A stretch of DNA of 32,000 bases from Nonlabens ponticola (GTDB taxonomy: Bacteria > Bacteroidota > Bacteroidia > Flavobacteriales > Flavobacteriaceae), in assembly GCF_003966335.1 (NCBI RefSeq), contig NZ_CP034549.1, forward strand, positions 2,310,001 to 2,342,000, written 5' to 3'. Both the position numbers and the translations under genes were made by a program. Under the pieces are notes generated by a model that was not told the origin of the DNA, ran no database searches, and saw nothing but the letters and a program-made list of their open reading frames with translations. The stretch's first letter is position 1, and each line of letters starts with the position of its first letter. This document shows positions 8,869 to 26,669 of the stretch, one piece after another.

Positions 8869-8882
8869 GCTTTCGCGAAAGC
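8869..8882. repeat. copy 1 of 14-bp perfect palindrome GCTTTCGCGAAAGC (intergenic)
   Basis: Exact match read directly. The flank GTAATC on the right gives + polarity. Confidence 0.95.
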
Positions 8883-8918
8883 GTAATCACGACCATCTAA
8901 TAAAAATATAGCAGGTAG

Positions 8919-8932
8919 CTTATCATGATAAG
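8919..8932. repeat. unrelated 14-bp perfect palindrome CTTATCATGATAAG
   Basis: Self-complementary over all 14 nt. Lies in the same convergent intergenic gap. Confidence 0.9.
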
Positions 8933-8960
8933 GTCTCACGCATGAGTTACGCGCAATAAA

Positions 8961-8986
8961 AAAGCCTCCTAAAACTAGGAGGCTTT
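8961..8986 (-). terminator. rho-independent terminator of the OmpA-family gene
   Basis: Stem AAAGCCTCCT (8961-8970) pairs with AGGAGGCTTT (8977-8986), loop AAAACT. On the minus strand it is followed by TTTT (8957-8960). It lies 20 nt past the stop at 9006. Confidence 0.65.
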
Positions 8987-9005
8987 CTATTATTTATTTC
9001 AGGAA

Positions 9006-9878
9006 TTACTTGCCTGCTTTAGCGTTTTGCTTTGCCTGCTCCATTCCTTTCTCTACCATATCAAAGAATTGATCTAGCTTAGGAAGAACGATGATGCGTG
9101 TACGTCTGTTTTTTGCGCGACCTTCGGCAGTATCGTTACTCGCTACAGGAATGTAGTAGCTTCTACCTGCTGCCGTCATGCGTGATGGTGCCACGTCAAA
9201 GTCTTCTTGTAGGATGCGAGTAACCGCAAGTGCACGAGCTGTACTCAATGCCCAGTTGTCCTTGAATTGTGGCGTATTGATAGGCTGATTGTCCGTGTGA
9301 CCTTCTACCATGATCTCAATCTCTGGCTTGTCGTTCACCACTTTGGCAACTTTACCTAGTACGTTTTTAGCATTATTGTTTACCGTCGCGCTACCGCTAG
9401 GGAATAACAACTTGTCACTGATGGATACATAAACAACACCTTTCTCAACATTGATGCTTATGTCCTCATCGTTCAAGTTACCCAATGAACTCTTCAAACT
9501 AGTAACGAGTGCTAGTGTCACACTGTCTTTTCTAGTGATCGCATCGTTAAGTGTCTTGATTTGTAAATCTTTCTCGCGTAGGCTTTCTAGAGACTTCTCT
9601 AGATTTTCAGCACCTTTTTTAGAAAGTGTTGTCAACTCTCCAGTATTATTGATCAATGACTGGTTGTTCGCGCGCAAGTCTGCTACTTGAGCTTGAAGTG
9701 CTTGCAATCTTGCCTCGTTAGCTTTTTCTTCAGCCTCACAAGCATTGAGTCTTACGGTTGCTGTATCAAGTAACTCTTGAGTACGTTGTTGTTTTTCTAG
9801 AGCTGCGTCTAGATCTTTTTTTGATGCACATGACACTGCAAGTAGTGCAGATAGTGCGATAAAACCAAGTTTTTTCAT
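9006..9878 (-). CDS. OmpA-family (OmpA/MotB C-terminal domain) lipoprotein with N-terminal coiled coil
   Basis: 290 aa. Lipobox LAVSCAS. Has a heptad-rich Q/E/L/A region. The OmpA_C signature is present (GHTDNQPI, NWALSTARALAV, NRRTRI). Confidence 0.85.
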   Translation of the reverse strand: MKKLGFIALSALLAVSCASKKDLDAALEKQQRTQELLDTATVRLNACEAEEKANEARLQALQAQVADLRANNQSLINNTGELTTLSKKGAENLEKSLESLREKDLQIKTLNDAITRKDSVTLALVTSLKSSLGNLNDEDISINVEKGVVYVSISDKLLFPSGSATVNNNAKNVLGKVAKVVNDKPEIEIMVEGHTDNQPINTPQFKDNWALSTARALAVTRILQEDFDVAPSRMTAAGRSYYIPVASNDTAEGRAKNRRTRIIVLPKLDQFFDMVEKGMEQAKQNAKAGK

Positions 9879-9904
9879 TGTAGAATATTAATTAAAATAT
9901 GAGC

Positions 9905-9912
9905 CAAAAGTA
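9905..9912 (-). promoter_or_regulatory. candidate Bacteroidota -7 box (TACTTTTG) for the OmpA-family gene
   Basis: Matches TAnnTTTG on the minus strand about 27 nt upstream of the ATG at 9878. Confidence 0.3.
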
Positions 9913-9960
9913 TGAAGATTGCAACAGGTGAATGGCATATTAACAGATTTTTTTATCACA

Positions 9961-10965
9961 TCACAGTTGCTCAAACTTCTTGTTACCCTTGATATAGTAT
10001 TGATATACGATGGATGTGACTTCTCTAGAACGAGATGGTTTAAGATATAGTGCTTTGAGATGTTCCCGCTTTTTTAGAGATGCTCCCAACCTATTATAAA
10101 AATGAAAATGTGCTTTTAAGACGGCTGCAAGTTGTGCCGGCTGCGCAGCAATTAAAAATCTTAGGCCAGCTATACCATCAAGTATCATGCGCAAGAATAA
10201 GCGCAGCCATACATAATTGCCATAGTCATTCTTTACAATGGTGGTCAAACTGTTTCTAAAGTTCAAATAAGTTTTCCTAGGACTGCTCGCGGCAAGCGTT
10301 GCAGCACCTAGATGATAAACGATGGATGACGGTATGACCTTAATATCATGACCTTGATTGCGCAGTCGCCAGCACAGATCAATCTCTTCTTGATGGGCAA
10401 AAAAACTCTCGTCAAAGCCTTGTAGATTTATAAAAAGCTCTCTTCTTATAAATAAAGCCGCACCAGTTGCCCAATCGATAGACAACTCATCATCATACTG
10501 ACCTTGATCTTTTTCTACCGTGTCAAAAATGCGACCTCGACAGTAAGGATAGCCTAATTTATCAAGAAAGCCACCGCTAGCGCCTGCGTATTCAAACATG
10601 GACTTATCACGATCTGACAAAATTTTGGGCTGGCAAGCCGTCATAGATCTATTCCGTGCAAATGCCTCAAGAACAGGCTCACACCAGTTTGAGGTAACCG
10701 CAACATCGTTATTTAATAGACAAACGATATCTTCCTCGCAATGCTCCATCGCATAATTGTAACCACCTGCATATCCTAAGTTCTGCGGAATCTCGATAAT
10801 TTTCACTGCTGGATAATTGGATCGCAACCATTCCAGACTGTTGTCTTTCGAGGCATTGTCTGCGACGTAAATTCTATGTGGCGTACTATGCTCCACCACA
10901 CTAGGTAAATATTCTTCCAGCAGTTGCCTGCCATTCCAGTTAAGTATGACGATACCTAGATTCAT
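9961..10965 (-). CDS. family 2 glycosyltransferase
   Basis: 334 aa. N-terminal pattern IVILNWNG...YVADNASKD...LLNNDV is GT-A fold with a DxD-like motif. Its ATG overlaps the upstream stop (ATGA). Confidence 0.8.
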   Translation of the reverse strand: MNLGIVILNWNGRQLLEEYLPSVVEHSTPHRIYVADNASKDNSLEWLRSNYPAVKIIEIPQNLGYAGGYNYAMEHCEEDIVCLLNNDVAVTSNWCEPVLEAFARNRSMTACQPKILSDRDKSMFEYAGASGGFLDKLGYPYCRGRIFDTVEKDQGQYDDELSIDWATGAALFIRRELFINLQGFDESFFAHQEEIDLCWRLRNQGHDIKVIPSSIVYHLGAATLAASSPRKTYLNFRNSLTTIVKNDYGNYVWLRLFLRMILDGIAGLRFLIAAQPAQLAAVLKAHFHFYNRLGASLKKREHLKALYLKPSRSREVTSIVYQYYIKGNKKFEQL

Positions 10966-11408
10966 AGTACGTATTCAGGTAAATCTTCTATGAAACTATA
11001 TTTCTCATTCTTGTAATCCATCTGGCAGTAGTAATGCGACAAGCCGTTTGTGATCATGAGATAGTTTGCTTGGGTAATAAGATTGTATCTCGCGATTTGA
11101 TCAAAAACTTCTTGAGAAATATTGATGCTAGGTGCTTTACACTCTACTATTGTGTCAATACTGCCGTCCTTATTATATACCACAATATCGTATCGCTTTA
11201 TGGTTCCTGCGACTATCAACTGTTTCTCGATATTTATGAGACTTAGCGGTACTCTTTTATATTCTTGCAGCCAATTAATTACATGTTGACGTACCCATTC
11301 TTCTGGTGATAAATGCACGAACTTTTTGCGCACCTTATCAAAGATTAAGCGCCCTTTTTCTGTACTTTTAACCCTGAATTGCGCAGACGGTAGTCGCAGT
11401 GCCTCCAT
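10962..11408 (-). CDS. stand-alone HsdR N-terminal-like PD-(D/E)xK nuclease-fold protein
   Basis: 148 aa. E61...D74...E89-C-K91 (YDIVVY...IVECK) fits the PD-(D/E)xK pattern of the type I restriction HsdR N-terminal domain family. Confidence 0.6.
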   Translation of the reverse strand: MEALRLPSAQFRVKSTEKGRLIFDKVRKKFVHLSPEEWVRQHVINWLQEYKRVPLSLINIEKQLIVAGTIKRYDIVVYNKDGSIDTIVECKAPSINISQEVFDQIARYNLITQANYLMITNGLSHYYCQMDYKNEKYSFIEDLPEYVL

Positions 11409-11441
11409 ACGGCAATATTACAAAAACCACCACGGCTCTAC

Positions 11442-12449
11442 ATGAGTGATCTCCAGAATATTCTATCAGATATCAAGAGCAAGAAGTTTGCTCCTATATA
11501 TTTCCTGCATGGTGATGAACCCTATTTCATAGATCAGATAAGCAACTTGATCCAAGAAGAAGTCCTGACCGAGGCTGAGCGTGGATTCAATCAAATGGTA
11601 TTGTACGGCAAGGACGTCACCGTTGATGAGATTGTGGAGAATGCCAAACGTTTCCCGATGATGGCGCAATATCAGGTCATCATTGTTAAAGAGGCACAAC
11701 ATCTTGCTGCAAAGTTATCTGCCATGGAACAGTATGCTGCTGCACCATTGGAAAGCACGATACTTGTCCTCAATTTTAAATACAAGAAACCAGACGGCAG
11801 GAAAAAGGTTTTTAAACATATCAAGAAAAATGGTGTTGTATTTGACAGCAAACCCATCTATGATAACAAGATGCCTGCATGGATAACCAATTATCTTAAG
11901 GTAAAAAAGTACAGCATTGATCCTAAAGCCGTCCAGATGCTGGTGGAATTTCTAGGGAATGATCTGGGTCGAGTAAGTAACGAGCTAGAAAAACTGATGA
12001 TTGTCCACAAACCAGAATCGCCTATCACACCACAAGTTATTGAGGACAATATAGGAATCTCAAAAGATTACAACAATTTTGAATTACGAAAGGCCCTAGG
12101 CATGCGTGATGTGGTCAAGGTGCATCGCATCATCAATTATTTTGCTGATAATCCCAAGGAAAATCCGCTGGTATTGACCACGGCACAAATGCACAACTTT
12201 TTTGTACAGCTGCTCAAAGTACATGCACTCAAGGATCGGTCACCACGCAGCGTTGCTAAGGCTGCTGGCATCAATCCGTTTTTTGTGCAAGAACTATTGA
12301 CTGCCGTGCGCAATTATCCCATGAAATATTGCAGTCGTGCGATCAAATTGATACGCGAGATGGATGTTAAGTCAAAAGGTGTCGATGCCATCAACATAAG
12401 TCAAGCTGATTTACTCAAAGAAACTATGGTAAAAATCATGGCTACATGA
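11442..12449 (+). CDS. holA: DNA polymerase III subunit delta
   Basis: 335 aa. N-terminal segment FAPIYFLHGDEPYFID and overall length and pattern are typical of HolA. Confidence 0.8.
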   Translation: MSDLQNILSDIKSKKFAPIYFLHGDEPYFIDQISNLIQEEVLTEAERGFNQMVLYGKDVTVDEIVENAKRFPMMAQYQVIIVKEAQHLAAKLSAMEQYAAAPLESTILVLNFKYKKPDGRKKVFKHIKKNGVVFDSKPIYDNKMPAWITNYLKVKKYSIDPKAVQMLVEFLGNDLGRVSNELEKLMIVHKPESPITPQVIEDNIGISKDYNNFELRKALGMRDVVKVHRIINYFADNPKENPLVLTTAQMHNFFVQLLKVHALKDRSPRSVAKAAGINPFFVQELLTAVRNYPMKYCSRAIKLIREMDVKSKGVDAINISQADLLKETMVKIMAT

Positions 12450-13453
12450 GCAATTTTAAAGCATGGATCAGCGCGGCACGACCACGCACACTGCCGTTGA
12501 GCATTAGCGGTATCATACTGGGTAGTTGTTATGCTTATGGTTACAACGCTTTCGCGAAAGCGGTATTATTACTAGGTTCTCCGCAAACAAACGACGTCAT
12601 AAATCAACCCATTTTATTTGTAAAATTCAACTGGTGGATACCTGTACTAGCTTTGATTACCACTCTAGGTTTTCAGGTGCTGTCCAATTTTGCAAACGAT
12701 TATGGCGATGGCGTTAAAGGTACCGACAATGATGACCGTATTGGACCAATGCGTGCCATTCAAAGCGGCTTGATAAGCGCAGTACAAATGAAAAGAGCTA
12801 TGATTATCACGGCTTGCCTTACAGCTGTGAGCGCTATTAGTTTGATTTATGTGAGTTTAGGGTTGGAACAATTGATCACATCGCTGTTCTTTCTTGTGCT
12901 AGGCGTTGCCGCAATATGGGCCGCCATAAAATATACGGTAGGCGATAATGCTTATGGCTATCGTGGATTGGGTGATGTATTTGTTTTTATCTTTTTTGGC
13001 CCGGTAAGCGTGATCGGTGTTTATTACTTAATCGCGAGCCAACTTGAATGGTTGTTGTTGTTGCCATCATTGACCATTGGTTTGTTGAGTGTTGCCGTGC
13101 TCAACCTGAACAACATGCGTGATATCGAGAGCGATCGCAAGGCAGGAAAGAATACCATTCCCGTAAAAATAGGTATCACAAATGCCAAAAGGCTTCACTA
13201 CTCATTCATAGCCATCGCGCTGATTTCAATTATTGCATACATTTTTATAATAATTAAAACTTTAGGCAATGTGGTTGGTGATACAGAATGGCTATGGCTT
13301 CCTATCCTGGTTTTACCCATGTTGCTTGTTCACATCATCACAGTTTATCGCAATAAAGTTCCAGCACTACTCGACCCAGAACTTAAAAAAGTTGCACTCT
13401 CCACCTTCTTTATCGCGATCCTAACAATTATCGCAACAGCGAGAGTTTACTAG
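12446..13453 (+). CDS. menA: 1,4-dihydroxy-2-naphthoate polyprenyltransferase
   Basis: 335 aa polytopic membrane protein. Has the UbiA-family Asp-rich motifs NDYGDGVKGTD and NNMRDIESDRKAGKNT. Its ATG overlaps the holA stop (ATGA). Confidence 0.9.
   Translation: MSNFKAWISAARPRTLPLSISGIILGSCYAYGYNAFAKAVLLLGSPQTNDVINQPILFVKFNWWIPVLALITTLGFQVLSNFANDYGDGVKGTDNDDRIGPMRAIQSGLISAVQMKRAMIITACLTAVSAISLIYVSLGLEQLITSLFFLVLGVAAIWAAIKYTVGDNAYGYRGLGDVFVFIFFGPVSVIGVYYLIASQLEWLLLLPSLTIGLLSVAVLNLNNMRDIESDRKAGKNTIPVKIGITNAKRLHYSFIAIALISIIAYIFIIIKTLGNVVGDTEWLWLPILVLPMLLVHIITVYRNKVPALLDPELKKVALSTFFIAILTIIATARVY
12548..12561. repeat. copy 2 of GCTTTCGCGAAAGC (inside menA, read as AFAKA)
   Basis: Exact match. Corresponds to codons 35-39 of menA. 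Right flank GGTATT. Confidence 0.95.
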
Positions 13454-13633
13454 CTTTTAAAGAATTAAGTAATTATCATATTCTCAGTATTATGCACGCA
13501 TAATGAATTATTATTGATATTAGGATAATATATTCATGATTTGTTAGGTTATCTGCATTTAAAATCATTATATTTAAATTCACTAAAATCATTCTTATTG
13601 CAACAAATTACTCTACAATAAACTTATCGTACT

Positions 13634-13837
13634 ATGGCTAGAGCAATGTTTGAATACACCCTAACGGTGCTGGAAAAAATGACTTTTGACACCAATTTAT
13701 TTTGCAAGGAATTGCAAAAAGCGATGGATCGTCTACTTCCATTTGAAATATCAGAACTACAGATATGGCTGCAAGGAATCGTTTTGCAACATCCACAATT
13801 AAATGTGTGTTTACCTGAGTATAAAATGACACAATAG
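13634..13837 (+). CDS. hypothetical small protein (67 aa)
   Basis: ORF only. Predicted soluble and helical. Lies in an AT-rich gap. No motif recognised. Confidence 0.3.
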   Translation: MARAMFEYTLTVLEKMTFDTNLFCKELQKAMDRLLPFEISELQIWLQGIVLQHPQLNVCLPEYKMTQ

Positions 13838-13881
13838 TAGTCACTAGTAGTGATTAAAACCTCACCTTCATTAACAGTAAT

Positions 13882-14079: not shown

Positions 14080-14087
14080 TTCAGTTA

Positions 14088-15682: not shown

Positions 15683-15683
15683 A

Positions 15684-16061: not shown

Positions 16062-16110
16062 TCTGTCGATAACCTATTACCAATGCAATAGATTCTCGGT
16101 GCAATATTCC

Positions 16111-16135: not shown

Positions 16136-18547
16136 ATGGCTCGTAAAAAATCAACCAAATCCAAAACGGTCAAAAAGAAGTCGCCTATCAAGGCGGTTAC
16201 CTCTTTTAAATTGACTCGATTGCAAGAGGTCATTGCTGGTAGCTTCCTAATTATATTAGGGCTTATTCTTGCACTTAGTTTTACTTCTTTTTTACTCACA
16301 TGGCGCGAGGATCAAAGCATTTTAGGTCGTTTAGGTGAACGAGAACTAGTTGCTGGCAATTGGCTCAGCAAGTTGGGTGCATGGTTGGGCGATGTCTTTG
16401 TTTATGACGGTTTTGGTATTGCTGCCTACTCCATTGCAATCTTGACGATTATTACCGGACTCTACTTATTTGCAGCAAAGAGTGAGGTGATCTCGCTTTC
16501 GCGAAAGCGGATATCCAAATTATGGATTTGGGGACTGTTACTCATGGTTTGGGTAAGTGTCTTTCTAGGTTTCTTTCATGAGCGCAACGCATTATTGGGC
16601 GGCAAGGTAGGATACGAACTCAATGACTTTTTACAGGACTACATAGGACTGATAGGCGCAATACTGGTGATGGCGCTGACTGCCATCATATATATGGTGA
16701 TGCGATTAAAGTTGACACCAGAAAAAATAAGCAACTATTTCAAATCAAAAGCTGCCGACATAAAAAGTGATTTTAAAGATGATGAGGCACCAGCTACAGA
16801 GATTACTGAGCTGGAAGAAGACTGGAAGTCAAACACCGTAGAAGGTAAGGAAACACCACTTACAGTAGAGCCCGCAGATGAACCAACTGTGGTAGAGACA
16901 CCAAAGCCACCTCAACCAATCATAAAATCCATCCCAGCAACAGATGATGATCTAGGCATGGAAATCCAGCAAATTGCTGATGAAGAAGAAGTGATAGACA
17001 GTAAATCAAGCAAGCTAGTAGAGGATTTTGGTGAATTTGATCCAACGTTGGAACTGAGTAATTTTCAATTTCCGCCTATTGATTTATTGAAGGATTACAC
17101 TCAAGGTCGCACGCTCACGATTAATGAGGAAGAACTACAGGCAAATAAGGACCGCATTGTCGAGACGCTTAAAAATTATAAAATTGGAATTGCCAAGATC
17201 ACAGCAACCATTGGCCCAACCGTGACATTGTACGAGATTGTTCCTGAAGCTGGTGTACGTATTTCCAAAATCAAAAATCTTGAAGACGATATTGCCTTAT
17301 CGCTGGCCGCGCTAGGAATCAGGATCATCGCGCCTATTCCAGGTAAAGGAACCATAGGTATCGAGGTGCCTAACCAGAATCCATCGATCGTGTCCATGCG
17401 ATCTGTCATTGCTTCGCCTAAATTTCAAAAAGCGGAAATGGCACTGCCTATCGCTTTTGGTAAAACTATAAGTAATGAGACGTTTGTCGTCGATCTAGCC
17501 AAAATGCCTCACCTACTCATGGCTGGTGCTACCGGACAAGGTAAATCGGTAGGTTTGAACGCCGTGCTCACCTCACTACTCTATTCAAAACATCCCGCTG
17601 AAGTCAAGTTTGTACTCGTAGATCCCAAAAAAGTAGAGCTTACCTTATTCAACAAAATTGAACGTCATTATCTAGCCAAGTTACCTGACAGCGAGGACGC
17701 GATTATCACAGATAATTCCAAAGTGATCAACACGCTCAACAGCTTGTGTATCGAGATGGACCAACGATACGATATTCTCAAGGAAGCGATGTGTCGCAAT
17801 ATTAAGGAGTATAATGCCAAGTTTAAGGCACGCAAACTCAATCCAGCAAACGGCCATAAATTCCTACCATATATCGTGCTGGTTGTTGATGAATTTGCAG
17901 ACCTCATCATGACTGCTGGTAAAGAGGTAGAAACACCTATCGCGCGACTGGCGCAGCTGGCTCGTGCCATAGGTATTCATTTGATCATCGCCACGCAGCG
18001 ACCATCTGTTAATGTGATTACGGGTATGATTAAGGCAAACTTTCCTGCGCGTGTGTCCTTCAGAGTGCAACAAAAGGTGGATTCTCGCACCATACTTGAC
18101 AGTGGTGGCGCAGACCAATTGATAGGACGTGGTGACATGCTTTACACGGCTGGTAATGAGATTATCAGGATACAATGTGCATTTGTGGACACGCCCGAGG
18201 TTGAAAAGATTACAGACTTTATTGGCTCTCAAAAAGCTTATCCAGATGCACACCTTTTACCAGAGTACGTGGGTGAAGAAGGTGGCACAGCAATTGATAA
18301 TATTATAGAGGAGCGCGATGCAAAATTCCGTGAGGCGGCAGATATCATCGTGATTGCACAGCAAGGAAGTGCCTCGTTGTTGCAACGCAAGCTCAAGTTA
18401 GGTTACAATCGTGCTGGTAGAATTATCGACCAGTTAGAGGCCGCAGGAATTGTAGGCGGTTTTGAAGGCAGTAAGGCACGACAGGTGCTTATTCCAGATT
18501 TGGCCTCGCTAGAAGTATTTTTAAATGAAGAAAAGAACAGACCATAA
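16136..18547 (+). CDS. ftsK: DNA translocase FtsK
   Basis: 803 aa. Has an N-terminal membrane domain and an acidic/Pro-rich linker. Motor motifs are Walker A GATGQGKS, Walker B VLVVDEFADL and ATQRPS. The C-terminal gamma winged helix is present (LLQRKLKLGYNRAGRIIDQLE). Confidence 0.95.
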   Translation: MARKKSTKSKTVKKKSPIKAVTSFKLTRLQEVIAGSFLIILGLILALSFTSFLLTWREDQSILGRLGERELVAGNWLSKLGAWLGDVFVYDGFGIAAYSIAILTIITGLYLFAAKSEVISLSRKRISKLWIWGLLLMVWVSVFLGFFHERNALLGGKVGYELNDFLQDYIGLIGAILVMALTAIIYMVMRLKLTPEKISNYFKSKAADIKSDFKDDEAPATEITELEEDWKSNTVEGKETPLTVEPADEPTVVETPKPPQPIIKSIPATDDDLGMEIQQIADEEEVIDSKSSKLVEDFGEFDPTLELSNFQFPPIDLLKDYTQGRTLTINEEELQANKDRIVETLKNYKIGIAKITATIGPTVTLYEIVPEAGVRISKIKNLEDDIALSLAALGIRIIAPIPGKGTIGIEVPNQNPSIVSMRSVIASPKFQKAEMALPIAFGKTISNETFVVDLAKMPHLLMAGATGQGKSVGLNAVLTSLLYSKHPAEVKFVLVDPKKVELTLFNKIERHYLAKLPDSEDAIITDNSKVINTLNSLCIEMDQRYDILKEAMCRNIKEYNAKFKARKLNPANGHKFLPYIVLVVDEFADLIMTAGKEVETPIARLAQLARAIGIHLIIATQRPSVNVITGMIKANFPARVSFRVQQKVDSRTILDSGGADQLIGRGDMLYTAGNEIIRIQCAFVDTPEVEKITDFIGSQKAYPDAHLLPEYVGEEGGTAIDNIIEERDAKFREAADIIVIAQQGSASLLQRKLKLGYNRAGRIIDQLEAAGIVGGFEGSKARQVLIPDLASLEVFLNEEKNRP
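16495..16508. repeat. copy 3 of GCTTTCGCGAAAGC (inside ftsK, read as S-LSRK-R)
   Basis: Exact match. Spans codons 120-125 of ftsK (ISLSRKRIS). Right flank GGATAT. Confidence 0.95.
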
Positions 18548-18548
18548 A

Positions 18549-19199
18549 ATGATAATGACAAGAATCTACTTAATGATGTTTATGTGTTTTGCTTTCGCGA
18601 AAGCGGTATCAGCACAATCCTCGACTGCAGATAAATTGCTCAACGAGGTAGCAACCAAGTATAAGGCTTATGACAACGTAGTATTCACCTACAAAGGCAA
18701 TCTCAAAAATGAGCGAGCCAAATTTGATACCGACATCCAAGGCGAGGCAAAATTGAGCGGCAATATGTACAATGCCACCTATAACGGTACTACCTATATG
18801 TATGACGGTTCAAAATTATATACAATCAATCGCGAGGACGAGCAAGTAACCATCACAAAACAAGTAAGCGACGGTTCACAGATGATCAATCCATCGAATA
18901 TTATGACGTTTTATGAAAAGGGTTATACTAGAGAAATGGACATCATCCAGAATGTAAAAGGTCGCAAGATCCAGTACGTTAAACTGACGCCCATCAAATC
19001 TGATAGTGAATACAAGAATATTTTACTAGGTGTTGATGCAAATACCAAGCATATCTATAACGCTATTATTACAGAGCGCAGTGGTACCATCATCACGTTT
19101 ACTCTAAAGTCTTTCAAGCCTAATGAGACACTGCCTAAAAACAGTTTTATCTTTGATGCGTCTCAATATGATAATTGGGATATAGAAGAGATGGACTAG
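18549..19199 (+). CDS. lolA: LolA-like outer-membrane lipoprotein carrier protein
   Basis: Signal peptide followed by a ~190-aa beta-rich domain. The position immediately after ftsK is conserved in Bacteroidota. The start is ambiguous: ATG at 18549 lies just after the ftsK stop, while ATG at 18525 overlaps ftsK by 23 nt. Confidence 0.65.
   Translation: MIMTRIYLMMFMCFAFAKAVSAQSSTADKLLNEVATKYKAYDNVVFTYKGNLKNERAKFDTDIQGEAKLSGNMYNATYNGTTYMYDGSKLYTINREDEQVTITKQVSDGSQMINPSNIMTFYEKGYTREMDIIQNVKGRKIQYVKLTPIKSDSEYKNILLGVDANTKHIYNAIITERSGTIITFTLKSFKPNETLPKNSFIFDASQYDNWDIEEMD
18591..18604. repeat. copy 4 of GCTTTCGCGAAAGC (inside the lolA-like signal peptide, read as AFAKA)
   Basis: Exact match. Right flank GGTATC. 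Confidence 0.95.
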
Positions 19200-20646: not shown

Positions 20647-20650
20647 TCCA

Positions 20651-20658
20651 TATCTTTG
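20651..20658 (+). promoter_or_regulatory. candidate Bacteroidota -7 box (TATCTTTG) for ribBA
   Basis: Matches TAnnTTTG 22 nt upstream of the ATG at 20681. Confidence 0.3.
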
Positions 20659-20680
20659 TAATTCAACGCAAAGTAAGGTA

Positions 20681-21826
20681 ATGACAACAGCTACAGCAGG
20701 TGCGGCCATCAAGTTAGACCGCATCGAAGACGCTATTCAAGATATTAAGGACGGTAAGGTAATCATCGTGGTAGATGATGAAAATCGTGAGAATGAAGGT
20801 GATTTTCTCGCCAGTGCACAAAGTGTAACGCCACAAATGATCAATTTTATGGCAACGCATGGTCGTGGATTGATCTGTTGTCCTATCACGCCACAGCGAG
20901 TCAAGGAACTGGACTTGAACATGATGGTCAATAACAATTCTGACCCTATGGAGACGGCGTTTACCGTATCTGTGGATTTGCGAGGTCATGGTGTCACTAC
21001 CGGTATTAGTGCCAGTGATAGAGCACTTACCATACAGGCAATGATAAATCCAGAGACGCAACCGCACGACCTGAGTAAACCTGGACACATATTCCCACTC
21101 AAGGCAAAAGATGGTGGCGTGCTAAGACGCACTGGCCATACTGAAGCTGCAATTGATTTTGCACGATTGGCAGGACACAAACCAGCTGGTGTTATTGTCG
21201 AGATCATGAATGAGGACGGCACCATGGCGAGATTGCCGCAATTAATTGAAGTTGCCAGAAAACATGATCTCAAACTGGTAAGCATCGAGGATCTCGTGGC
21301 CTATCGCATGAAACACGATAGTCTCATTGTAAAAAAAGAGGACTTTGAACTCAAGACGCGCTTTGGAACATATAGATTGAGAGCCTATCAACAAACTACT
21401 AACGATCAGATACATCTAGCTTTGACATTGGGCGACTGGAACAAAGAAGACACGGTTTTAACAAGAATGAATAGCACCCAAGTGAACAATGACCTCTTCT
21501 CTACCCTAACGAGTGAAGCTGATCGCAAGCTGGATGCCATGTTTGAGCGTTTAAATCAAGAAGGTAAAGGAGCCATCGTATTCATCAACCAGCAGTTTGA
21601 ACCAGAAAATATGCTGGGTAGATTAGAAGAATTAAAGGATCTGCAACTCAATGGCAAGGTAAAAGCGCCACGCCGCAATCTTGATAACAAGGACTATGGT
21701 ATTGGCGCACAAATTCTGCATGACTTGGATATTACCAAGCTCAAATTGATGACTAATAGCGAGCAAAGTAAACGCATAGGCATGATAGGCTATGACCTTG
21801 AAATAAAGGAGATTGTTAGTTATTGA
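20681..21826 (+). CDS. ribBA: 3,4-dihydroxy-2-butanone-4-phosphate synthase fused to a degenerate GTP cyclohydrolase II-like domain
   Basis: The RibB half is intact (DDENRENEGDF, HGRGLIC, TAFTVSVD, PGHIFPL, RRTGHTEA). The C-terminal half aligns to GCHII (DYGIGAQILHDL) but lacks the three zinc-binding cysteines. Confidence 0.85.
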   Translation: MTTATAGAAIKLDRIEDAIQDIKDGKVIIVVDDENRENEGDFLASAQSVTPQMINFMATHGRGLICCPITPQRVKELDLNMMVNNNSDPMETAFTVSVDLRGHGVTTGISASDRALTIQAMINPETQPHDLSKPGHIFPLKAKDGGVLRRTGHTEAAIDFARLAGHKPAGVIVEIMNEDGTMARLPQLIEVARKHDLKLVSIEDLVAYRMKHDSLIVKKEDFELKTRFGTYRLRAYQQTTNDQIHLALTLGDWNKEDTVLTRMNSTQVNNDLFSTLTSEADRKLDAMFERLNQEGKGAIVFINQQFEPENMLGRLEELKDLQLNGKVKAPRRNLDNKDYGIGAQILHDLDITKLKLMTNSEQSKRIGMIGYDLEIKEIVSY

Positions 21827-21842
21827 GGATTATAATTTTTTA

Positions 21843-21856
21843 GCTTTCGCGAAAGC
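21843..21856. repeat. copy 5 of GCTTTCGCGAAAGC (intergenic, ribBA-murQ spacer)
   Basis: Exact match. Right flank GTAACA. Confidence 0.95.
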
Positions 21857-21869
21857 GTAACATATATAA

Positions 21870-22685
21870 ATGTCACAGCACAACTACACAGAACAGGATT
21901 CCAGACATCATGATCTCGAATTGAAGTCTACTGGCGAGCTATTGGAAGCTATCAATGCCGAAGATCAAGTTGTCGCTAAAGCCATTCAAAAAATCCTTCC
22001 TGAGATTGAAAAGCTAGTAGACGCGATTGTGTTAAGAATGAGAGATGGCGGCAGATTGTTTTACATAGGTGCAGGCACGAGCGGTCGATTGGGAATACTA
22101 GATGCTAGTGAGTGCCCACCGACTTTTGGCGTTTCGCCAGACAAGGTCATTGGGATTATTGCAGGTGGTGATCAAGCGATTAGAAATGCCGTAGAAAATG
22201 CAGAAGATGATCAAACCCAAGCACTAAAAGATCTTGAAAAGCACGACATTAACACGAAGGATATTGTCATAGGCATTGCCGCGAGCGGTCGCACACCTTA
22301 TGTACTTGCAGGAATTAAGGCTTGTAAGGACCGCAAGATTCTTACTGGCGGTATAACCTGTAATCCTGAAAGTCCACTTGATCTCGCAGCCCAGCATTCT
22401 CTAGTTGCTGTCGTCGGCCCAGAATTTGTTACCGGTAGCAGCCGCATGAAAGCTGGAACAGCCCAAAAAATGATATTGAATATGATATCTACTAGCGTCA
22501 TGATAAAATTGGGACATGTTAAAGGTAATAAGATGGTGGATATGCAATTGAGCAATGACAAGCTGGTTGATCGCGGTGCTCGTATGATCATGCAAGCCAC
22601 AAAAATGGATTATGAAACCTCGCAGAAAATGCTCAAAAAATACGGTAGCGTGCGAGGAGTCCTGGATCATATAGATTTGTGCTAA
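21870..22685 (+). CDS. murQ: N-acetylmuramic acid 6-phosphate etherase
   Basis: 271 aa. SIS-domain signature LFYIGAGTSGRLGILDASECPPTFGV and TGSSRMKAGTAQK. Confidence 0.9.
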   Translation: MSQHNYTEQDSRHHDLELKSTGELLEAINAEDQVVAKAIQKILPEIEKLVDAIVLRMRDGGRLFYIGAGTSGRLGILDASECPPTFGVSPDKVIGIIAGGDQAIRNAVENAEDDQTQALKDLEKHDINTKDIVIGIAASGRTPYVLAGIKACKDRKILTGGITCNPESPLDLAAQHSLVAVVGPEFVTGSSRMKAGTAQKMILNMISTSVMIKLGHVKGNKMVDMQLSNDKLVDRGARMIMQATKMDYETSQKMLKKYGSVRGVLDHIDLC

Positions 22686-22918
22686 TGAAACAAGCATCAA
22701 CAGACCGTGAGATTTTGGGTAAAGGTGTCAAACGTTTATTACTGGCACTACCCTTTTTCATTTTGGGACCAACGCTGATCTTTATAGGAGCTGGAAGTGA
22801 GCATCCCATTATTTTTTTAATGCCTGGAATAGCCTTTGCAATTCTGGCTGTCTATTTTATGTTTTCGGGAATCAATACGATTCTAGACTCCATGTTCAAA
22901 ACCAAAAAAACTAGATAA
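22685..22918 (+). CDS. small membrane protein (two TM helices), function unknown
   Basis: 77 aa from the ATG at 22685, which overlaps the murQ stop (TAATG). The track ORF starts at GTG 22679. Confidence 0.5.
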   Translation: MKQASTDREILGKGVKRLLLALPFFILGPTLIFIGAGSEHPIIFLMPGIAFAILAVYFMFSGINTILDSMFKTKKTR

Positions 22919-23721
22919 TGAAATCGACCTACCTACTACTTTGCCTACTGTGTATCGTGACCGCATGTAAGACTGAAAATAAAAAGGAATCAGATAATTC
23001 CATTGAGACTACCCAGCAAGTCACAGCATCGATGAGCCCTGCTAGAGAATTAGTGAATAACATTGAGAGAGCTCACGGCGCAAATGCCTTTGCAGATCAA
23101 GAGATGGTTTCTTTTGATATCAACCTAGACTTTGGCGGTAAGGATCGACTGGACGGCACCATCTATATGACGACAGATTCAAAATATGCGCGTATTGAAA
23201 AAACTAATGGTGATGTGTTACTGTATGATGGCAATAAGGTGTGGTTATCGCCTAAAGATGCTAATCAGCAAGGCGCGAGATTTGATATATTTACCTGGAC
23301 TTACTTTTTTGCCTTGCCGTTCAAATTATCAGATGATGGTGCTCAAGTTGAAATGATGGAACCGCAGGATGAGATGAAACGCGTGCATCTAAGCTTTGAA
23401 AGTGGTACTGGCGATGCACCTGATGATTGGTACGATCTATACGTGGACGATCAAAACATATTACAATATGCAGGTTACATCGTCACCTATGGCGGCACAC
23501 CAGCTGAAAAAGCTGTGGAAAACGCACACGCCATAGGCTATCAGAGTTACAAAAATATTGAAGGTGTGCAGATAGCTCATGATTGGAAATTTTATAATTA
23601 TGATGATAATGTTGATACTTCAAACATCATTGGTGAAGCAAGTCTTAAGAATGTAGAATTCCGTCCAGTAGCACCTAGCTTGTTTAAGAAACCCGACAAC
23701 GCCGTAGAAATAAGTTTGTAA
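22918..23721 (+). CDS. hypothetical lipoprotein
   Basis: 267 aa. Lipobox LCIVTAC. Its start overlaps the upstream stop (TAATG). No catalytic motif recognised. Confidence 0.6.
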   Translation: MKSTYLLLCLLCIVTACKTENKKESDNSIETTQQVTASMSPARELVNNIERAHGANAFADQEMVSFDINLDFGGKDRLDGTIYMTTDSKYARIEKTNGDVLLYDGNKVWLSPKDANQQGARFDIFTWTYFFALPFKLSDDGAQVEMMEPQDEMKRVHLSFESGTGDAPDDWYDLYVDDQNILQYAGYIVTYGGTPAEKAVENAHAIGYQSYKNIEGVQIAHDWKFYNYDDNVDTSNIIGEASLKNVEFRPVAPSLFKKPDNAVEISL

Positions 23722-23799
23722 CTACTTGAGTGCATAAGTATCAATAGCATTGCTGGCAATAAGCAAATCAAAAATGAGTTTTTATAGCAACTCTATCAC

Positions 23800-25491
23800 A
23801 TGAATAAATTCTTAGCTTTTATAATATGTCTGATACTATCAGCTAATGTATTTGCACAGACTGAGCAGCCGCAAGACTCGTTGATCAAAATAAGCTCTGG
23901 TTTTACAACTATTAATGAGAAACTTTTCCCAGGTGCTGTAGTGTACTTGCGTAATGATGCAAAACAAGTCTATGCAAAACATCAAGGAATAGAGATGTAC
24001 TGCGATCGCGCTGTGTTCTATGAGAAGAGCAACTTTATAAAAGCCATTGGGAATGTACGTATGATTCAAGGTGACAGCATACGCATGAACTCTAAATATG
24101 CGGAGTACAACGGTAATTCAAAACTTGCCTATGCCGCTGGACAGGTAAATATGAAAAGTCCAGAATCAACTTTATCTACTGATACCCTATATTTTGATCG
24201 CGCGAGACAGCAAGCCTTTTATCGCAGCGGCGGCACAGTAAAAGATACAGCAAGCACATTAAAAAGTCGTGTAGGTCGATACTATTTGAACGACAAAAAG
24301 TATGTTTTTCTAGATGATGTAGTCGTAACTAATCCGGAATATGTCATCAATTCCAACCATCTCAATTTTTATAGTGAAACAGGTCACACTTATATGTATG
24401 GTCCATCAACTATCACAGGCGCTACGAGTAAGGTCTATTGTGAGCGAGGATTTTATGATACCAGAGCCGATGAGGGCTATTTTGTCAAGAACAGTAGCAT
24501 TGATTATAATGATAGAAATGTAAAAGGCGATAGCCTTTATTTCAATCGCAACAACAGTTTTGCCAGCGCTACCAATAATATTGAAATAACTGATACCATC
24601 AACAACAGTGTCATACGTGGCCACTATGCAGAGGTCTATAGGGCTAAAGATTCGGTTTTCATCACAAAAAGAGCCGTCGCCATATCAGTTCAAGAAGCTG
24701 ATAGTGTCTATATACACGCAGACACCTTACTAGTAACAGGTAAAGAAAATGATAGGCTTGTTAGAGCCTATCCAGACGCTCGATTTTATAAAAGTGACTT
24801 GAGCGGCAAGGCAGATAGCATCGCGTCCAAGCAAATTACTGGATTGACTAAGATGATTAGAAAACCAATTATGTGGAGCGGCCTAAGCCAAATAACAGGT
24901 GACAGCATACATCTGCAATCTAACACTGTGACAGAGCAGATTGACTCCTTGCGAGTATTCTATAATGCCTTTATTGTCGATCAGGATTCTAGCGGTGGCT
25001 TTAATCAAATAAAGGGTAAGGAACTTATCGGTTTGTTTGAAAACAATGAGATGACCGTAGTCAATATCGACAAGAATGTTGAGAATTTGATCTATGTACG
25101 CAACGATACAGATGAATTAATAGGTATCAATAAAGGCACCAGTGGTAGAATGCAGATAGAGTTTGAAGAAAGCGAAATGGTCGTCATCACTAACTTTGAT
25201 CAACCGCGAGACATCACTTATCCATTAGAGGAAATCGCAGAAAATGCCCGAACGTTACGCGGTCTTGATTGGCGTGGCGATGAGATGCTCAGGAGCAAGG
25301 AAGATCTTTTTAAAGGCAAGCCTTTACCGCAACTAATACAAATTCAAGGATTGCCATTGCCCGAGGTTGAAGAGGCGTTTTTCACCAAAGAAAATCAAGA
25401 GCAGCTCAACAAGAACTCGTCGCTCTCAAAAGAAGATCTTGAGAACCGCGAGGAAGATGAGTTAGAAAACATTCAGGATCCAGATAATTGA
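23800..25491 (+). CDS. OstA-like (LptA/OstA N-terminal-type beta-jellyroll repeats) periplasmic protein
   Basis: 563 aa. Has a signal peptide and repetitive beta-rich sequence with a recurring D-S/T-L-Y/I-hydrophobic pattern. The C-terminal tail is acidic. Confidence 0.5.
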   Translation: MNKFLAFIICLILSANVFAQTEQPQDSLIKISSGFTTINEKLFPGAVVYLRNDAKQVYAKHQGIEMYCDRAVFYEKSNFIKAIGNVRMIQGDSIRMNSKYAEYNGNSKLAYAAGQVNMKSPESTLSTDTLYFDRARQQAFYRSGGTVKDTASTLKSRVGRYYLNDKKYVFLDDVVVTNPEYVINSNHLNFYSETGHTYMYGPSTITGATSKVYCERGFYDTRADEGYFVKNSSIDYNDRNVKGDSLYFNRNNSFASATNNIEITDTINNSVIRGHYAEVYRAKDSVFITKRAVAISVQEADSVYIHADTLLVTGKENDRLVRAYPDARFYKSDLSGKADSIASKQITGLTKMIRKPIMWSGLSQITGDSIHLQSNTVTEQIDSLRVFYNAFIVDQDSSGGFNQIKGKELIGLFENNEMTVVNIDKNVENLIYVRNDTDELIGINKGTSGRMQIEFEESEMVVITNFDQPRDITYPLEEIAENARTLRGLDWRGDEMLRSKEDLFKGKPLPQLIQIQGLPLPEVEEAFFTKENQEQLNKNSSLSKEDLENREEDELENIQDPDN

Positions 25492-26669
25492 AGGAAGATT
25501 TCTTTAAATATCAAGCACCTACTACTCCATTTGCCAGCGGTCTAGAAATAAGTCATGCTAGCGGCAGCAAGATTTATGACAAGCACGGCAAGGAATACAT
25601 AGACATGGTAGCTGGTGTTAGTGCCTTACCACTAGGTCATAGCCATCATGCAGTCGTCAAAGCTATACAACAGCAAGCAGAGAAGTATCTTCATGTAATG
25701 GTTTATGGCGAGTTTGCGCAAGAACCAGCCGTACGTTTGTGCAAGATGCTTAGCAATAGTATGCCCGATCCATTAGAAATGACCTATCTGGTCAACAGTG
25801 GTACTGAGGCGATTGAAGCTTCCTTAAAACTCGCTCGCAGGATTACAGGTAGATCTCAAATCGTGGCCATGCACAATGCATATCATGGCAACACGATGGG
25901 ATCTTTAAGCTTGATGGATTATGAGGAACGCAAGGCGCCGTTCAGACCTTTGATTCCTAATATTAAGCACATAAATTATAATTGCCTGGCACATATTAAT
26001 CAAATTACCACAAGTACAGCAGCGGTAATTGTAGAGGCAATTCAAGGTGGTGCAGGATTTATAAAGGGTGACAAACGCTGGTTCCAGCAGCTCGCAGCCC
26101 GTTGTAAAGAGGTGGGCGCCATGCTCATTCTTGACGAGATACAAACAGGTGTTGGACGCACAGGTACTTTCTGGTATTTTGAACAAATGGACATTGTTCC
26201 TGATATGGTCGTTAGCGGTAAAGGACTAGCTGGTGGCTTACCCATCGGCGCCTTAACGGCAAGCACACAGCATATGGAGCATTTTAAGGTCGCACCCATG
26301 TTAGGTCATATCACAACTTTTGGTGGTAATCCAGTGATCGCGGCTGCAGCCTGTGCAACCGTGCAGGAAATTATTTCACGTGATTTGATGAATGCTGTTA
26401 TGGATAAAGAATTACGCTTTCGCGAAAGCTTACAATCCAAACACATCAAGGAAATACGAGGAACTGGTCTCATGCTAGCCATCATATTGCACGACGACCG
26501 ATTCACTTCTCAAATAGTTGACGAGTGTAGAGAAAGAGGTGCCATATTCTTCCTGCTGCTATTTGAAAAACGAGCTATAAGAATCACTCCAGCTTATACA
26601 GTAGGTGATGAAGATTCTACTAAAGCAATCAATATTTTGCTAGAAGTGATTCACAAATTTTACGACTAA
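25488..26669 (+). CDS. class-III PLP-dependent aminotransferase (acetylornithine/GABA aminotransferase-like)
   Basis: 393 aa. Motifs NSGTEAIEASLKLAR, ILDEIQTGVGRTG, and the PLP lysine in VVSGKGLAGGLP. The TTG start overlaps the upstream stop. Confidence 0.85.
   Translation: MKEDFFKYQAPTTPFASGLEISHASGSKIYDKHGKEYIDMVAGVSALPLGHSHHAVVKAIQQQAEKYLHVMVYGEFAQEPAVRLCKMLSNSMPDPLEMTYLVNSGTEAIEASLKLARRITGRSQIVAMHNAYHGNTMGSLSLMDYEERKAPFRPLIPNIKHINYNCLAHINQITTSTAAVIVEAIQGGAGFIKGDKRWFQQLAARCKEVGAMLILDEIQTGVGRTGTFWYFEQMDIVPDMVVSGKGLAGGLPIGALTASTQHMEHFKVAPMLGHITTFGGNPVIAAAACATVQEIISRDLMNAVMDKELRFRESLQSKHIKEIRGTGLMLAIILHDDRFTSQIVDECRERGAIFFLLLFEKRAIRITPAYTVGDEDSTKAINILLEVIHKFYD
26416..26429. repeat. copy 6 of GCTTTCGCGAAAGC (inside the aminotransferase gene, read as R-FRES)
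   Basis: Exact match. The conserved flank (GTAATT) lies on the opposite strand, giving minus polarity. Confidence 0.95.

Follow-up and report, generated by a model that had tools for sequence, protein, structure and literature searches.

The 14-bp perfect palindrome GCTTTCGCGAAAGC of Nonlabens ponticola is best explained as a genomic word that is specific to its lineage, is actively maintained and belongs to the class of USS and HIP1. Six exact copies occur in the 32-kb stretch of DNA analysed here (hereafter the window), where about 1e-4 are expected. The copies are held identical at orthologous sites amid diverging DNA, are spaced more evenly than chance and share a flank signature that is symmetric in composition.

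Copies in the window

A recount confirmed the coordinates of all six copies (Table 1). The expectation under Markov models (orders 1-5, fitted to the window after masking of the GCTTTCGCGAAAGC copies) is 1e-5 to 1e-4 exact occurrences per 32 kb, which excludes chance as the sequence-only reading had maintained. Dinucleotide shuffles of the window gave 0.07 matches even with up to two mismatches permitted. The window contains no one-mismatch variant and a single two-mismatch variant, GTTTTCGCGCAAGC, with the usual GGTA flank after it.

As had been noted before, the copies lie both between genes (two) and within them (four). Those in the UbiA and lolA genes encode AFAKA, located ahead of the Pfam domain in the former and at the signal-peptide end in the latter, while the ftsK copy encodes S-LSRK-R and the aminotransferase copy (R)FRES.

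Table 1. Positions of the palindrome and related features in the window
Feature	Position	Strand	Context
GCTTTCGCGAAAGC, exact	8869..8882	.	intergenic; convergent VTT/DedA-like 8184-8798 (+) and OmpA-family 9006-9878 (-)
GCTTTCGCGAAAGC, exact	12548..12561	.	in UbiA prenyltransferase gene 12446-13453 (+), codons 35-39
GCTTTCGCGAAAGC, exact	16495..16508	.	in ftsK 16136-18547 (+), ~codon 120, 4TM region
GCTTTCGCGAAAGC, exact	18591..18604	.	in lolA 18525-19199 (+), codons 23-27
GCTTTCGCGAAAGC, exact	21843..21856	.	intergenic; 17 nt past ribBA 20681-21826, 14 nt ahead of murQ-like SIS gene 21870-22685
GCTTTCGCGAAAGC, exact	26416..26429	.	in class-III aminotransferase gene 25488-26669 (+), codons 310-314
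GTTTTCGCGCAAGC, two mismatches; relic or proto-copy	2767..2780	.	start of chorismate-binding gene 1741-2778 (-)
Extended element, example, ~54 bp	8849..8902	.	core plus ~20-nt flank on each side; other copies alike

Lineage range and density

GCTTTCGCGAAAGC is a lineage-wide feature of Nonlabens and Dokdonia, and the guess of Flavobacteriaceae in the sequence-only reading was right for this N. ponticola window. A scan of 185,579 species genomes returned at least 120 hit blocks, and among the matches listed 91 of 120 belonged to Dokdonia, Nonlabens or Flavobacteriaceae; in these listed matches the 91 blocks often held two or three copies per 8 kb and other taxa single matches. Copies were sampled at about 1 per 5-7 kb (about 1 per 6.9 kb from zero-truncated counts in the 91 related blocks), a density that in the 2.87-Mb genome fits the earlier prediction of hundreds of copies and would amount to some 400-500. 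Six syntenic Nonlabens loci contained 19 copies in 127 kb, the anchoring site having been removed beforehand, and 21 kb of Mesoflavibacter contained none.

The peak is sharp: 652 kb of related loci hold 144 exact copies against 13 one-, 14 two- and 18 three-mismatch variants, a ratio of about 11:1 between exact copies and one-mismatch variants, and 71% of copies form the 16-mer CGCTTTCGCGAAAGCG. Two lytic Nonlabens phages (35.7 kb each) carry no copy. Three copies lie in a prophage-like region (L176), which means that GCTTTCGCGAAAGC does not strictly mark chromosomal against foreign DNA.

Placement, origin and conservation

About 70% of copies are intragenic, with all three reading frames used (59/23/22). 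The 29% found in non-coding DNA, which makes up 10.6% of bases, represent a 2.8-fold enrichment (P=2e-10), and convergent gene pairs hold no excess of the intergenic copies. Several copies lie at signal-peptide ends, where AFAKA suits the A-x-A context of signal peptidase.

Copies arise in place by substitution, as indicated by indel-free comparisons of AT3, CpsB, OstA and hypA/B. The aminotransferase reads RFRES with the copy versus LIRQH in outgroup genera in a gap-free alignment, and the copies in CpsB, OstA and hypA/B likewise align without gaps to motif-less orthologues, some of which hold intermediate near-matches such as GCCTTCGAAAAAAG. Two ftsK copies adjoin variable-linker sites at which the genera differ in length by 6 codons (18 nt), leaving a small probability of a rare insertional origin.

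Across species the motif is 100% identical and its flanks 53-71% identical, and 93% of orthologous pairs with 60-70% identical flanks keep it exact. Comparison between relatives, which the sequence-only reading had called for, gave 14/14 identity at orthologous sites amid flanks of just 55-70% identity, and the lolA copy is common to six Nonlabens species and two Dokdonia genomes at the same position. Moreover, the ftsK copy at 16495 is present at the identical position in five Nonlabens species, the aminotransferase copy is exact in 7/7 Nonlabens species and in locus L091, and the copy at 21843 is kept in L091 despite ~72% identity of the neighbouring DNA. Synonymous positions within GCTTTCGCGAAAGC are frozen, whereas adjoining ones vary.

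Spacing and flanks

The copies are spaced more evenly than chance. The five gaps in the window have a CV of 0.26 (P=0.007), which overturns the earlier statement that spacing was not regular. Only 2 of 53 within-block gaps in the 91 related blocks fall below 1 kb versus 14.6 expected, and the minimum gap between copies is 856 bp versus ~43 expected.

No longer common repeat surrounds the six window copies, which share only 1-4 nt beyond the core. The earlier description of the flanks as divergent was thus correct for shared sequence but not for composition, since a significant symmetric signature of ~20 nt is common to the copies. The ~20 nt upstream of the core are C-poor and T/G-rich, and the ~20 nt downstream are G-poor and A/C-rich. 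This signature is symmetric about the core yet strand-specific, CACA being favoured over TGTG on the same side, and flank "dialects" differ between genera.

Comparison with known systems

Among the earlier proposals, an uptake-signal-like sequence gives the best fit, the tested sequence-level hallmarks of USS and DUS being found here except for asymmetry and paired-terminator copies. Like the USS of Haemophilus/Pasteurellaceae and the DUS of Neisseriaceae, GCTTTCGCGAAAGC occurs in hundreds of near-exact copies common to related species and genera, uses every reading frame with a bias to tolerated peptides and permissive protein regions, is enriched in intergenic DNA, is spaced more evenly than chance, is highly conserved amid diverging DNA and rare in foreign DNA, and combines a sharp core with weaker extended flank preferences and genus-specific flank dialects. 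Lineage range, density, sharp peak, placement, substitution origin, conservation, even spacing and absence from phages have all been described for USS/DUS (PMC2817400, PMC2397512). In contrast, GCTTTCGCGAAAGC is a perfect 14-16-bp palindrome rather than an asymmetric, non-palindromic 9-12-mer, lacks inverted pairs forming terminators, shows strand-specific C/G depletion in its flanks and occurs in Bacteroidota, a phylum other than that of the USS/DUS hosts.

HIP1 (GCGATCGC) of cyanobacteria is likewise a hyper-abundant palindrome in coding and non-coding DNA, spread by substitution without indels, conserved past codon conservation and non-randomly spaced, with a suspected role in transformation; other highly iterated palindromes of cyanobacteria are comparable. 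Its substitution origin, conservation and quasi-periodicity have been described (PMC5861425). The two words differ in sequence, phylum, length (14-16 bp for GCTTTCGCGAAAGC versus 8 bp) and density (~150-200 versus 300-2700 per Mb). One-off variants are common for HIP1 but rare for GCTTTCGCGAAAGC, and no cognate methyltransferase was identified for GCTTTCGCGAAAGC, unlike HIP-type words. No earlier report of such a palindrome in Bacteroidota was found in the searchable literature.

Alternative explanations

The exclusion of CRISPR, IS ends and ordinary MITEs by the sequence-only reading was upheld. More generally, a miniature mobile or insertion element (REP/BIME, MITE, RPE-like in-frame insert or short homing patch) is largely refuted and very improbable. 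REP/BIME and MITE-like repeats resemble GCTTTCGCGAAAGC as short palindromic sequences in many copies, and the two ftsK copies coinciding with 18-nt length differences would suit insertion; however, the gap-free alignments with motif-less orthologues, some holding near-matches, the lack of target-site duplications and of anything shared past the core and 1-4 nt, and copies that are mostly intragenic, unclustered, without a stable hairpin and conserved in the core only all speak against it. Hairpin signalling in RNA or DNA (by a terminator, attenuator or small RNA) is refuted as a general explanation, as is an origin as the side effect of selecting for a peptide, for instance AFAKA; both retain hardly any probability. 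A 5-bp hairpin can form, but at -2.1 kcal/mol it is no better than in shuffles; no flank-to-flank pairing was detected copy by copy, nor any T-tract 3' of GCTTTCGCGAAAGC, an Rfam search of the window returned no match, and the terminator-like hairpin of the convergent genes around 8869 lies apart from the copy, at 8961-8986. The absence of enrichment between convergent genes also disfavours a terminator. The fit of AFAKA to the A-x-A context at several signal-peptide ends does not account for the use of three frames and intergenic DNA, or for frozen synonymous positions beside variable ones.

That the copies form an array of sites bound by a dimeric protein of the nucleoid, of segregation or of chromosome architecture, kept by purifying selection on their spacing, is possible but rather unlikely. 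This is the structural hypothesis proposed for HIP1, whose periodicity has been interpreted likewise (PMC5861425), and it accords with the perfect palindromy and symmetric flank preferences, even spacing with a minimum distance of ~0.85 kb and exact conservation at orthologous sites. Strong selection for a chromosome-structuring protein array would also produce the same sequence-level features. It is loosely like the Noc (NBS), SlmA (SBS), MatP (matS) and ParB (parS) arrays, which are 12-16-bp palindromes scattered over the chromosome, genes included, implying a dimeric reader. These arrays number ~10-100 sites, which are degenerate and restricted to parts of the chromosome, whereas GCTTTCGCGAAAGC would have 400 or more evenly spaced exact copies with 14/14 identity and few one-mismatch variants, and no homologue of Noc, SlmA, MatP or ParB was implicated. 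Furthermore, with hundreds of sites backing each other up, selection on any one should be weak, but individual copies have lasted across genera, and a duplex-binding architectural protein leaves the strand-specific flank bias unexplained. In the methyltransferase or repair ratchet that Elhai put forward for HIP1, a methyltransferase, orphan or part of an R-M system, would recognise TCGCGA or the full word, and methyl-directed or very-short-patch-like repair bias would convert near-matches. This is improbable, although the CG-rich palindromic core is like Type II sites (TCGCGA being the NruI site), 160/216 TCGCGA hexamers in related loci fall within TTTCGCGAAA, and HIP-type words in cyanobacteria correlate with cognate methyltransferases (PMC4390886). 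A specificity of 14-16 bp far exceeds typical methyltransferase or Vsr recognition, a purely mutational process predicts no even spacing, and the many one-off variants expected are rare in fact. Outside the word TCGCGA occurs at the expected rate (5 versus 4.7), giving no sign of restriction or repair acting on the hexamer. It is similarly doubtful that the word acts like Chi, in both directions, as a recombination or "self" signal, or that it marks programmed breaks. After end processing at the word, the 3' single strands left on both sides would be its C-poor, T/G-rich flanks, a composition preferred by RecA; the ~20 nt 5' of the core have on each strand the polarity expected of 3' tails entering the word from either side. 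Chi of E. coli, reported in GT-rich islands about once per 5 kb, is similar in 5' context and density, and like GCTTTCGCGAAAGC it is a host-specific word missing from lytic phage. Known Chi sites are nevertheless short (5-8 nt), asymmetric and orientation-biased; they are read in single-stranded form and exceed expectation by only a few-fold, and none is known to be a long palindrome. Nor is Chi known for exact single-position conservation or mutual exclusion within 1 kb, and resection tracts are far longer than the ~20-nt skew.

A putative uptake or recombination word

The preferred reading, plausible but tentative, is that GCTTTCGCGAAAGC may be the site recognised by a two-fold symmetric protein taking part in DNA uptake or in recombination, with biased gene conversion maintaining it. 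A putative homodimeric DNA-binding protein would recognise the palindrome as a duplex, and the flanks would be read afterwards, on one strand only. The protein would serve a process favouring word-carrying DNA fragments, most plausibly uptake followed by homologous recombination; near-matches mutating to the exact word would spread in the population, and intact alleles would replace damaged copies. One copy per recombining fragment would suffice, leading to even spacing, and copies would settle where the peptide is tolerated, namely in intergenic DNA, signal peptides and linkers.

The sequence-only reading did not choose among its three hypotheses and passed over the even spacing, the signature in the flanks and the conservation at orthologous sites. 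Two further suggestions of that reading survive in part. A binding site for a dimeric protein is implied by the palindromy of GCTTTCGCGAAAGC and is compatible with an uptake word, but the specific analogy to Noc and ParB is weak, such arrays having few sites and a degenerate sequence. The lack of indels contradicts a self-propagating insertion element; spread by gene conversion is a possibility that forms part of the uptake-drive model.

Against an uptake role, a 14-16-bp palindrome carries more information than uptake seems to require, and nothing established in USS/DUS corresponds to the strand-specific skew of the flanks. The literature searched yielded no competence, uptake bias or receptor in Nonlabens or Dokdonia, and no reader protein for GCTTTCGCGAAAGC was found. 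Within Flavobacteriales, Riemerella columbina prefers its own DNA in natural transformation (PMC7965970), and HIP1 has lately been linked to transformation (bioRxiv 10.64898/2026.06.24.733823). In a phylum without such a report in the searchable literature, GCTTTCGCGAAAGC resembles the uptake tags of Neisseria and Haemophilus as well as HIP1.

Occurrence of the palindrome in the window

As the sequence-only reading had described, the perfect 14-bp palindrome GCTTTCGCGAAAGC, with the central hexamer TCGCGA, is present in six exact copies in the window; two lie between and four within genes. The excess over chance claimed there also holds. Markov models of order 1–5, trained on the window with the copies masked, predict only 1e-5 to 1e-4 exact copies per 32 kb (6 vs ~1e-4), and dinucleotide shuffles of the window give 0.07 matches with two mismatches allowed; together they rule out chance or base composition as the source of the word. 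One-mismatch neighbours are missing from the window, and a single two-mismatch match, a relic or proto-copy, was found. No longer repeat surrounds the window copies, whose sharing ends at the core plus 1–4 nt, in agreement with the first reading. The irregular spacing that it reported was not sustained, the five gaps of the window being even instead (CV 0.26, P=0.007).

Exact copies, the near match and associated features (window coordinates; the prefix L marks loci from related genomes in their own coordinates)
Feature	Position	Context	Peptide or sequence
Exact copy	8869	Intergenic, convergent pair VTT-domain gene / OmpA-family gene	
Exact copy	12548	Within UbiA gene, codon 35	AFAKA
Exact copy	16495	Within FtsK gene, ~codon 120	LSRK
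Exact copy	18591-18604	Within LolA gene, codon 23	AFAKA
Exact copy	21843	Intergenic, ribBA / murQ-like gene	
Exact copy	26416	Within class-III aminotransferase gene, codon 310	RFRES
Two-mismatch relic or proto-copy	2767-2780	Chorismate-binding gene start	GTTTTCGCGCAAGC, usual GGTA flank
Hairpin	8961-8986	Between convergent VTT-domain/OmpA-family genes; strong 11-bp stem, A and T runs beside	AAAGCCTCCTAAAACTAGGAGGCTTT
Copies at signal-peptide ends	18591-18604 (window), L026:4855, L057:5241, L071:7055, L089:1667, L100:6347, L103:3355, L110:157, L244:8341	End of N-terminal signal peptide	AFAKA

Exact copies are missing from the window's first 8.8 kb and from 28000-32000, where GC falls to 0.36-0.37 over Wzz/capsule-type polysaccharide genes. 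The window also encodes, at 10962-11408 on the minus strand and head-to-head with holA, a stand-alone 148-aa protein with an HSDR_N_2 domain only, the domain found at the N-terminal, nuclease-like end of R subunits in type I restriction systems; it has no evident link to the palindrome.

Lineage range, density and spacing

One genome per species was scanned for 185,579 species. Among the matches listed, 91 of the 120 blocks came from Dokdonia, Nonlabens or other Flavobacteriaceae MAGs, often with 2–3 copies per 8 kb, and the remaining taxa showed isolated matches only. Zero-truncated counts on the blocks among these listed matches gave a density of ~1 copy per 6.9 kb. Six syntenic 21-kb Nonlabens loci held 19 copies in 127 kb with the fetching site left out, and the window itself carries one copy per 5.3 kb, so that the sampled Dokdonia and Nonlabens DNA contains about 1 copy per 5–7 kb overall. 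Hundreds of copies per genome are a reasonable extrapolation from this sampled density. The word is thus common to Dokdonia and Nonlabens, whereas a Mesoflavibacter locus had 0 copies in 21 kb.

Isolated copies were also seen in Aquimarina (L071:7055, L110:157, L110:1090), Altibacter (L107), Leeuwenhoekiella (L112, L030) and Flavobacterium sp. (L101), at least some of those from other Flavobacteriaceae genera having typical flanks; two uncultured Aquimarina genomes share a copy in a 405-aa protein, within its signal peptide. In the Nonlabens ulvanivorans locus (L121, 34% GC), 21 kb contain 2 copies only, vs 3–6 in its relatives, and erosion of the word in this species of higher AT content is possible.

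The copies avoid one another. Within the blocks among matches listed, only 2 of 53 gaps were shorter than 1 kb vs 14.6 expected, and the smallest measured 856 bp vs ~43 bp expected.

Placement relative to genes and peptides

Intergenic DNA holds 29% of the copies vs 10.6% of non-coding bases (P=2e-10). The genes beside these copies are arranged in tandem in 26 cases, divergently in 9 and convergently in 5. A terminator role was rejected, as there is no bias towards convergent genes and the pair near 8869 has a separate terminator-like hairpin, which is probably the real bidirectional terminator and lies 80 nt downstream of the palindrome as an element of its own. A terminator/promoter scan called just the 12548 copy, weakly. 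No Rfam family matched in the window, and a known RNA family was set aside on that ground.

Coding copies are read as AFAKA in 59 cases, with 23 and 22 in the other two frames. A peptide-driven origin is ruled out by the use of all frames and of intergenic DNA. The first 35 codons contain 22 of 95 coding copies vs 12% expected, a 2-fold enrichment (P=0.002), and many AFAKA copies close a signal peptide at the N-terminus (...FAFAKA-QSQQ...), A-F-A there agreeing with the A-x-A rule of signal peptidase. The signal-peptide end tolerates the word and is also compatible with its flank composition.

Core sharpness and strand-specific flanks

In 652 kb of related DNA, 144 exact copies were counted vs 13, 14 and 18 variants with one, two and three mismatches, respectively, and 71% of the copies extend to the 16-mer CGCTTTCGCGAAAGCG. 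The core is identical in both genera, and the following positions differ. Dokdonia favours GTA[ACT] after the core, preferring TA[ACT] at positions +2 to +4, where 58% of copies have T at +2, and Nonlabens favours G[GAT]AA with [GAT]AA at these positions, a mild 'dialect' difference.

Beyond the core, ~20 nt upstream are T/G-rich and TTGTG-like with C reduced to 7–9% vs 18.6%, and ~20 nt downstream are G-depleted, A/C-rich and CACAA-like. This symmetric composition surrounds intergenic copies and copies in all three coding frames, and it is therefore a DNA-level signature and not a codon effect. It is strand-specific as well: although CACA and TGTG form almost the same duplex, each side of the core carries just one of the two orientations. 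On each strand, T and G are raised and C and A lowered 5' of the core. Such a skew would be expected if a 3' tail that ends at the core were left exposed and its strand underwent C-to-T and A-to-G changes; selection for GT-rich tails preferred by RecA would give it equally well. Motif-bearing alleles had less upstream C and less downstream G in 3 of only 4 independent presence/absence sites, a hint from a small sample that the skew may go along with the word.

The left and right arms within a copy showed no excess complementarity beyond positions 1–2 when compared with the arms of other copies, and the 14-mer hairpin reaches only -2.1 kcal/mol, no better than shuffles. With arms not matched copy by copy and a weak energy, the word does not appear to be a structured hairpin, and a copy-specific extended hairpin is ruled out by the same comparisons.

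Origin and persistence of the copies

The window's aminotransferase matches that of Nonlabens ponticola at 100% identity. It aligns to word-less orthologues without a gap, the protein reading KELRFRESL in all Nonlabens vs KEQLIRQHL in Olleya, Mesoflavibacter and Winogradskyella, and the exact 14-mer is kept in 7 of 7 Nonlabens species and at a further related locus (L091) with CGC arginine codons, which are uncommon in AT-rich genomes such as that of the 34%-GC N. ulvanivorans locus. The copies in CpsB, OstA and hypA/B likewise show no indels against orthologues lacking the word, some of which carry partial matches such as GCCTTCGAAAAAAG. The gapless alignments indicate that insertion is not the general mechanism of birth. 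Membership of a longer repeat, IS or MITE is rejected by the same lack of indels and by the short extent of sharing around the core. Two ftsK copies at different positions, the one at 16495 in Nonlabens and L113:4937 in Dokdonia, adjoin 6-codon (18-nt) length differences that sit in variable linker regions between the genera, and they provide the only hints of what could be an insertion-like origin.

Some sites are common to several species: the ftsK site to 5 Nonlabens species, the degT site to 3 species, and the lolA signal-peptide site to 6 Nonlabens species and 2 Dokdonia genomes. N. ulvanivorans retains a decayed lolA copy, GCTTTTATAAGT, that has lost 6 nt by deletion. In the ribBA/murQ spacer of N. 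agnitus (L242), orthologous to the window copy at 21843, 39 nt of unrelated sequence were observed instead (GCTTTTTGTAAACGCAGTGAACAAAAGTTTATATTGAGC, given in the orientation of the window alignment). Between species the word shows 100% identity, against 53–71% in the 60 nt on each side. In an all-against-all comparison, it was exact in 93% of orthologous pairs with flanks 60–70% identical, whereas simple arithmetic gives ~0.2% for all 14 positions under neutrality at 65% identity per site. Judging from these alignments, the positions of the word are old.

Foreign DNA and the central hexamer

The lytic Nonlabens phages P12024S and P12024L (35.7 kb each), which are related to each other, contain 0 copies with up to two mismatches vs ~5 per phage predicted from host density. 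The prophage-like contig IMGVR_UViG_2617271332_000001, encoding a head maturation protease and an endolysin, carries 3 exact copies in 11.3 kb (4210, 7851 and 10955) with typical flanks. A scan of a viral collection returned mostly single matches without the flank signature, apparently by chance, together with a few low-GC viral contigs with 2–3 copies.

Outside the word, TCGCGA is neither avoided nor enriched in the host (5 vs 4.7 expected), and thus no sign of restriction at the hexamer was obtained. It is missing from both phages; the zero in P12024S vs 2.9 from shuffles is not significant. Avoidance or enrichment of TCGCGA itself by restriction was set aside on these counts.

Comparison with known systems and interpretation

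The features of the word match the published profile of the uptake signals (USS/DUS) of Pasteurellaceae and Neisseriaceae (PMC2817400, PMC2397512). They include copy numbers far above composition, a biased occupation of all three frames, permissive protein regions and intergenic over-representation, spacing more even than random, a conserved word with diverging flanks and birth without insertion, presence in related genera with absence from a neighbour lineage, lack of copies in lytic phage, and weaker preferences that extend into the flanks. USS and DUS are asymmetric words that often form inverted-pair terminators, and competent cells favour DNA bearing them through a specific receptor; the present word is a perfect palindrome without terminator context, and in its palindromy and its 28–32 bits of information it stands apart from the uptake signals known so far. 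The published profile of HIP1, the highly iterated palindrome of cyanobacteria, also matches apart from copy density and exactness (PMC4390886, PMC5861425), with a palindrome over-represented in coding and non-coding DNA, spread by substitution and conserved beyond codons. The word differs from the HIP1 octamer GCGATCGC in sequence, length (14–16 bp) and phylum. A sub-palindrome inside HIP-type words is the target of a cognate DNA methyltransferase. A link between HIP1 and the efficiency of transformation has lately been described (bioRxiv 10.64898/2026.06.24.733823), and Riemerella columbina, of the same order, prefers its own DNA in natural transformation (PMC7965970).

We tentatively read the word as a recognition site for a symmetric dimer acting in DNA uptake or recombination. 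A population-level bias would restore intact copies, and molecular drive, in which DNA is taken up with a bias and then recombined, would be such a bias; it would also explain why a second copy brings no gain within ~1 kb. The exact persistence of hundreds of redundant sites fits a population-level bias more easily than selection on each site. This persistence argument, the feature set and the R. columbina precedent are what favour uptake or recombination. A dimeric reader is implied by the symmetry of the putative site, in keeping with the dimeric-protein and uptake-signal ideas of the first reading. A fuller version is possible and slightly less likely: the word would be the first specificity signal for uptake or recombination in Bacteroidota and the first palindromic one, read in the duplex by a symmetric dimer, with a later single-strand step having shaped the C-poor and G-poor flanks.

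An array that organizes the chromosome, of the Noc/SlmA/MatP/ParB type, would equally use a palindromic site of 12–16 bp. These arrays comprise tens of degenerate sites confined to chromosome regions, and the copy number and exactness of the word argue against membership. Chromosome architecture is a less likely alternative to the uptake reading. A palindromic Chi-like or break-site signal is improbable: Chi is an asymmetric word of 5–8 nt with an orientation bias relative to replication, and the word is a 14-bp palindrome without orientation. A ratchet of methylation and repair is about as improbable. REP/BIME elements and MITEs are extragenic, length-changing insertions with stable imperfect hairpins of 20–40 nt, whereas ~70% of the present copies are genic, and indels, a stable fold and arm covariation are all lacking.

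A full-text literature search returned no description of the word; the literature on uptake sequences in Flavobacteria/Bacteroidetes, Dokdonia palindromes and TCGCGA methylation held nothing on it, and nothing was found on competence in Dokdonia or Nonlabens.

Significance

Hyper-abundant, exactly conserved words are well described in few lineages only, namely Pasteurellaceae, Neisseriaceae and cyanobacteria, and each has raised questions on uptake, self-recognition and genome maintenance. The present example differs from these in phylum (Bacteroidota), sequence, length and symmetry, and in its added strand-specific flank signature. It carries the phenomenon into a further phylum and in a form unusually rich in information, a perfect 14–16-bp palindrome at ~1 per 5–7 kb in two marine Flavobacteriaceae genera, and its flanks may record a single-strand step of the underlying process. 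For annotation, the word accounts for the recurrent AFAKA, RFRES and LSRK peptides and the rare CGC, GCG and TCG codons in these proteomes. If the uptake reading is true, it would open marine flavobacteria to practical genetics and would let one test independently whether molecular drive can build such words by itself. Placing the 16-mer on donor DNA would then make Dokdonia and Nonlabens, including proteorhodopsin model strains, naturally transformable in practice.
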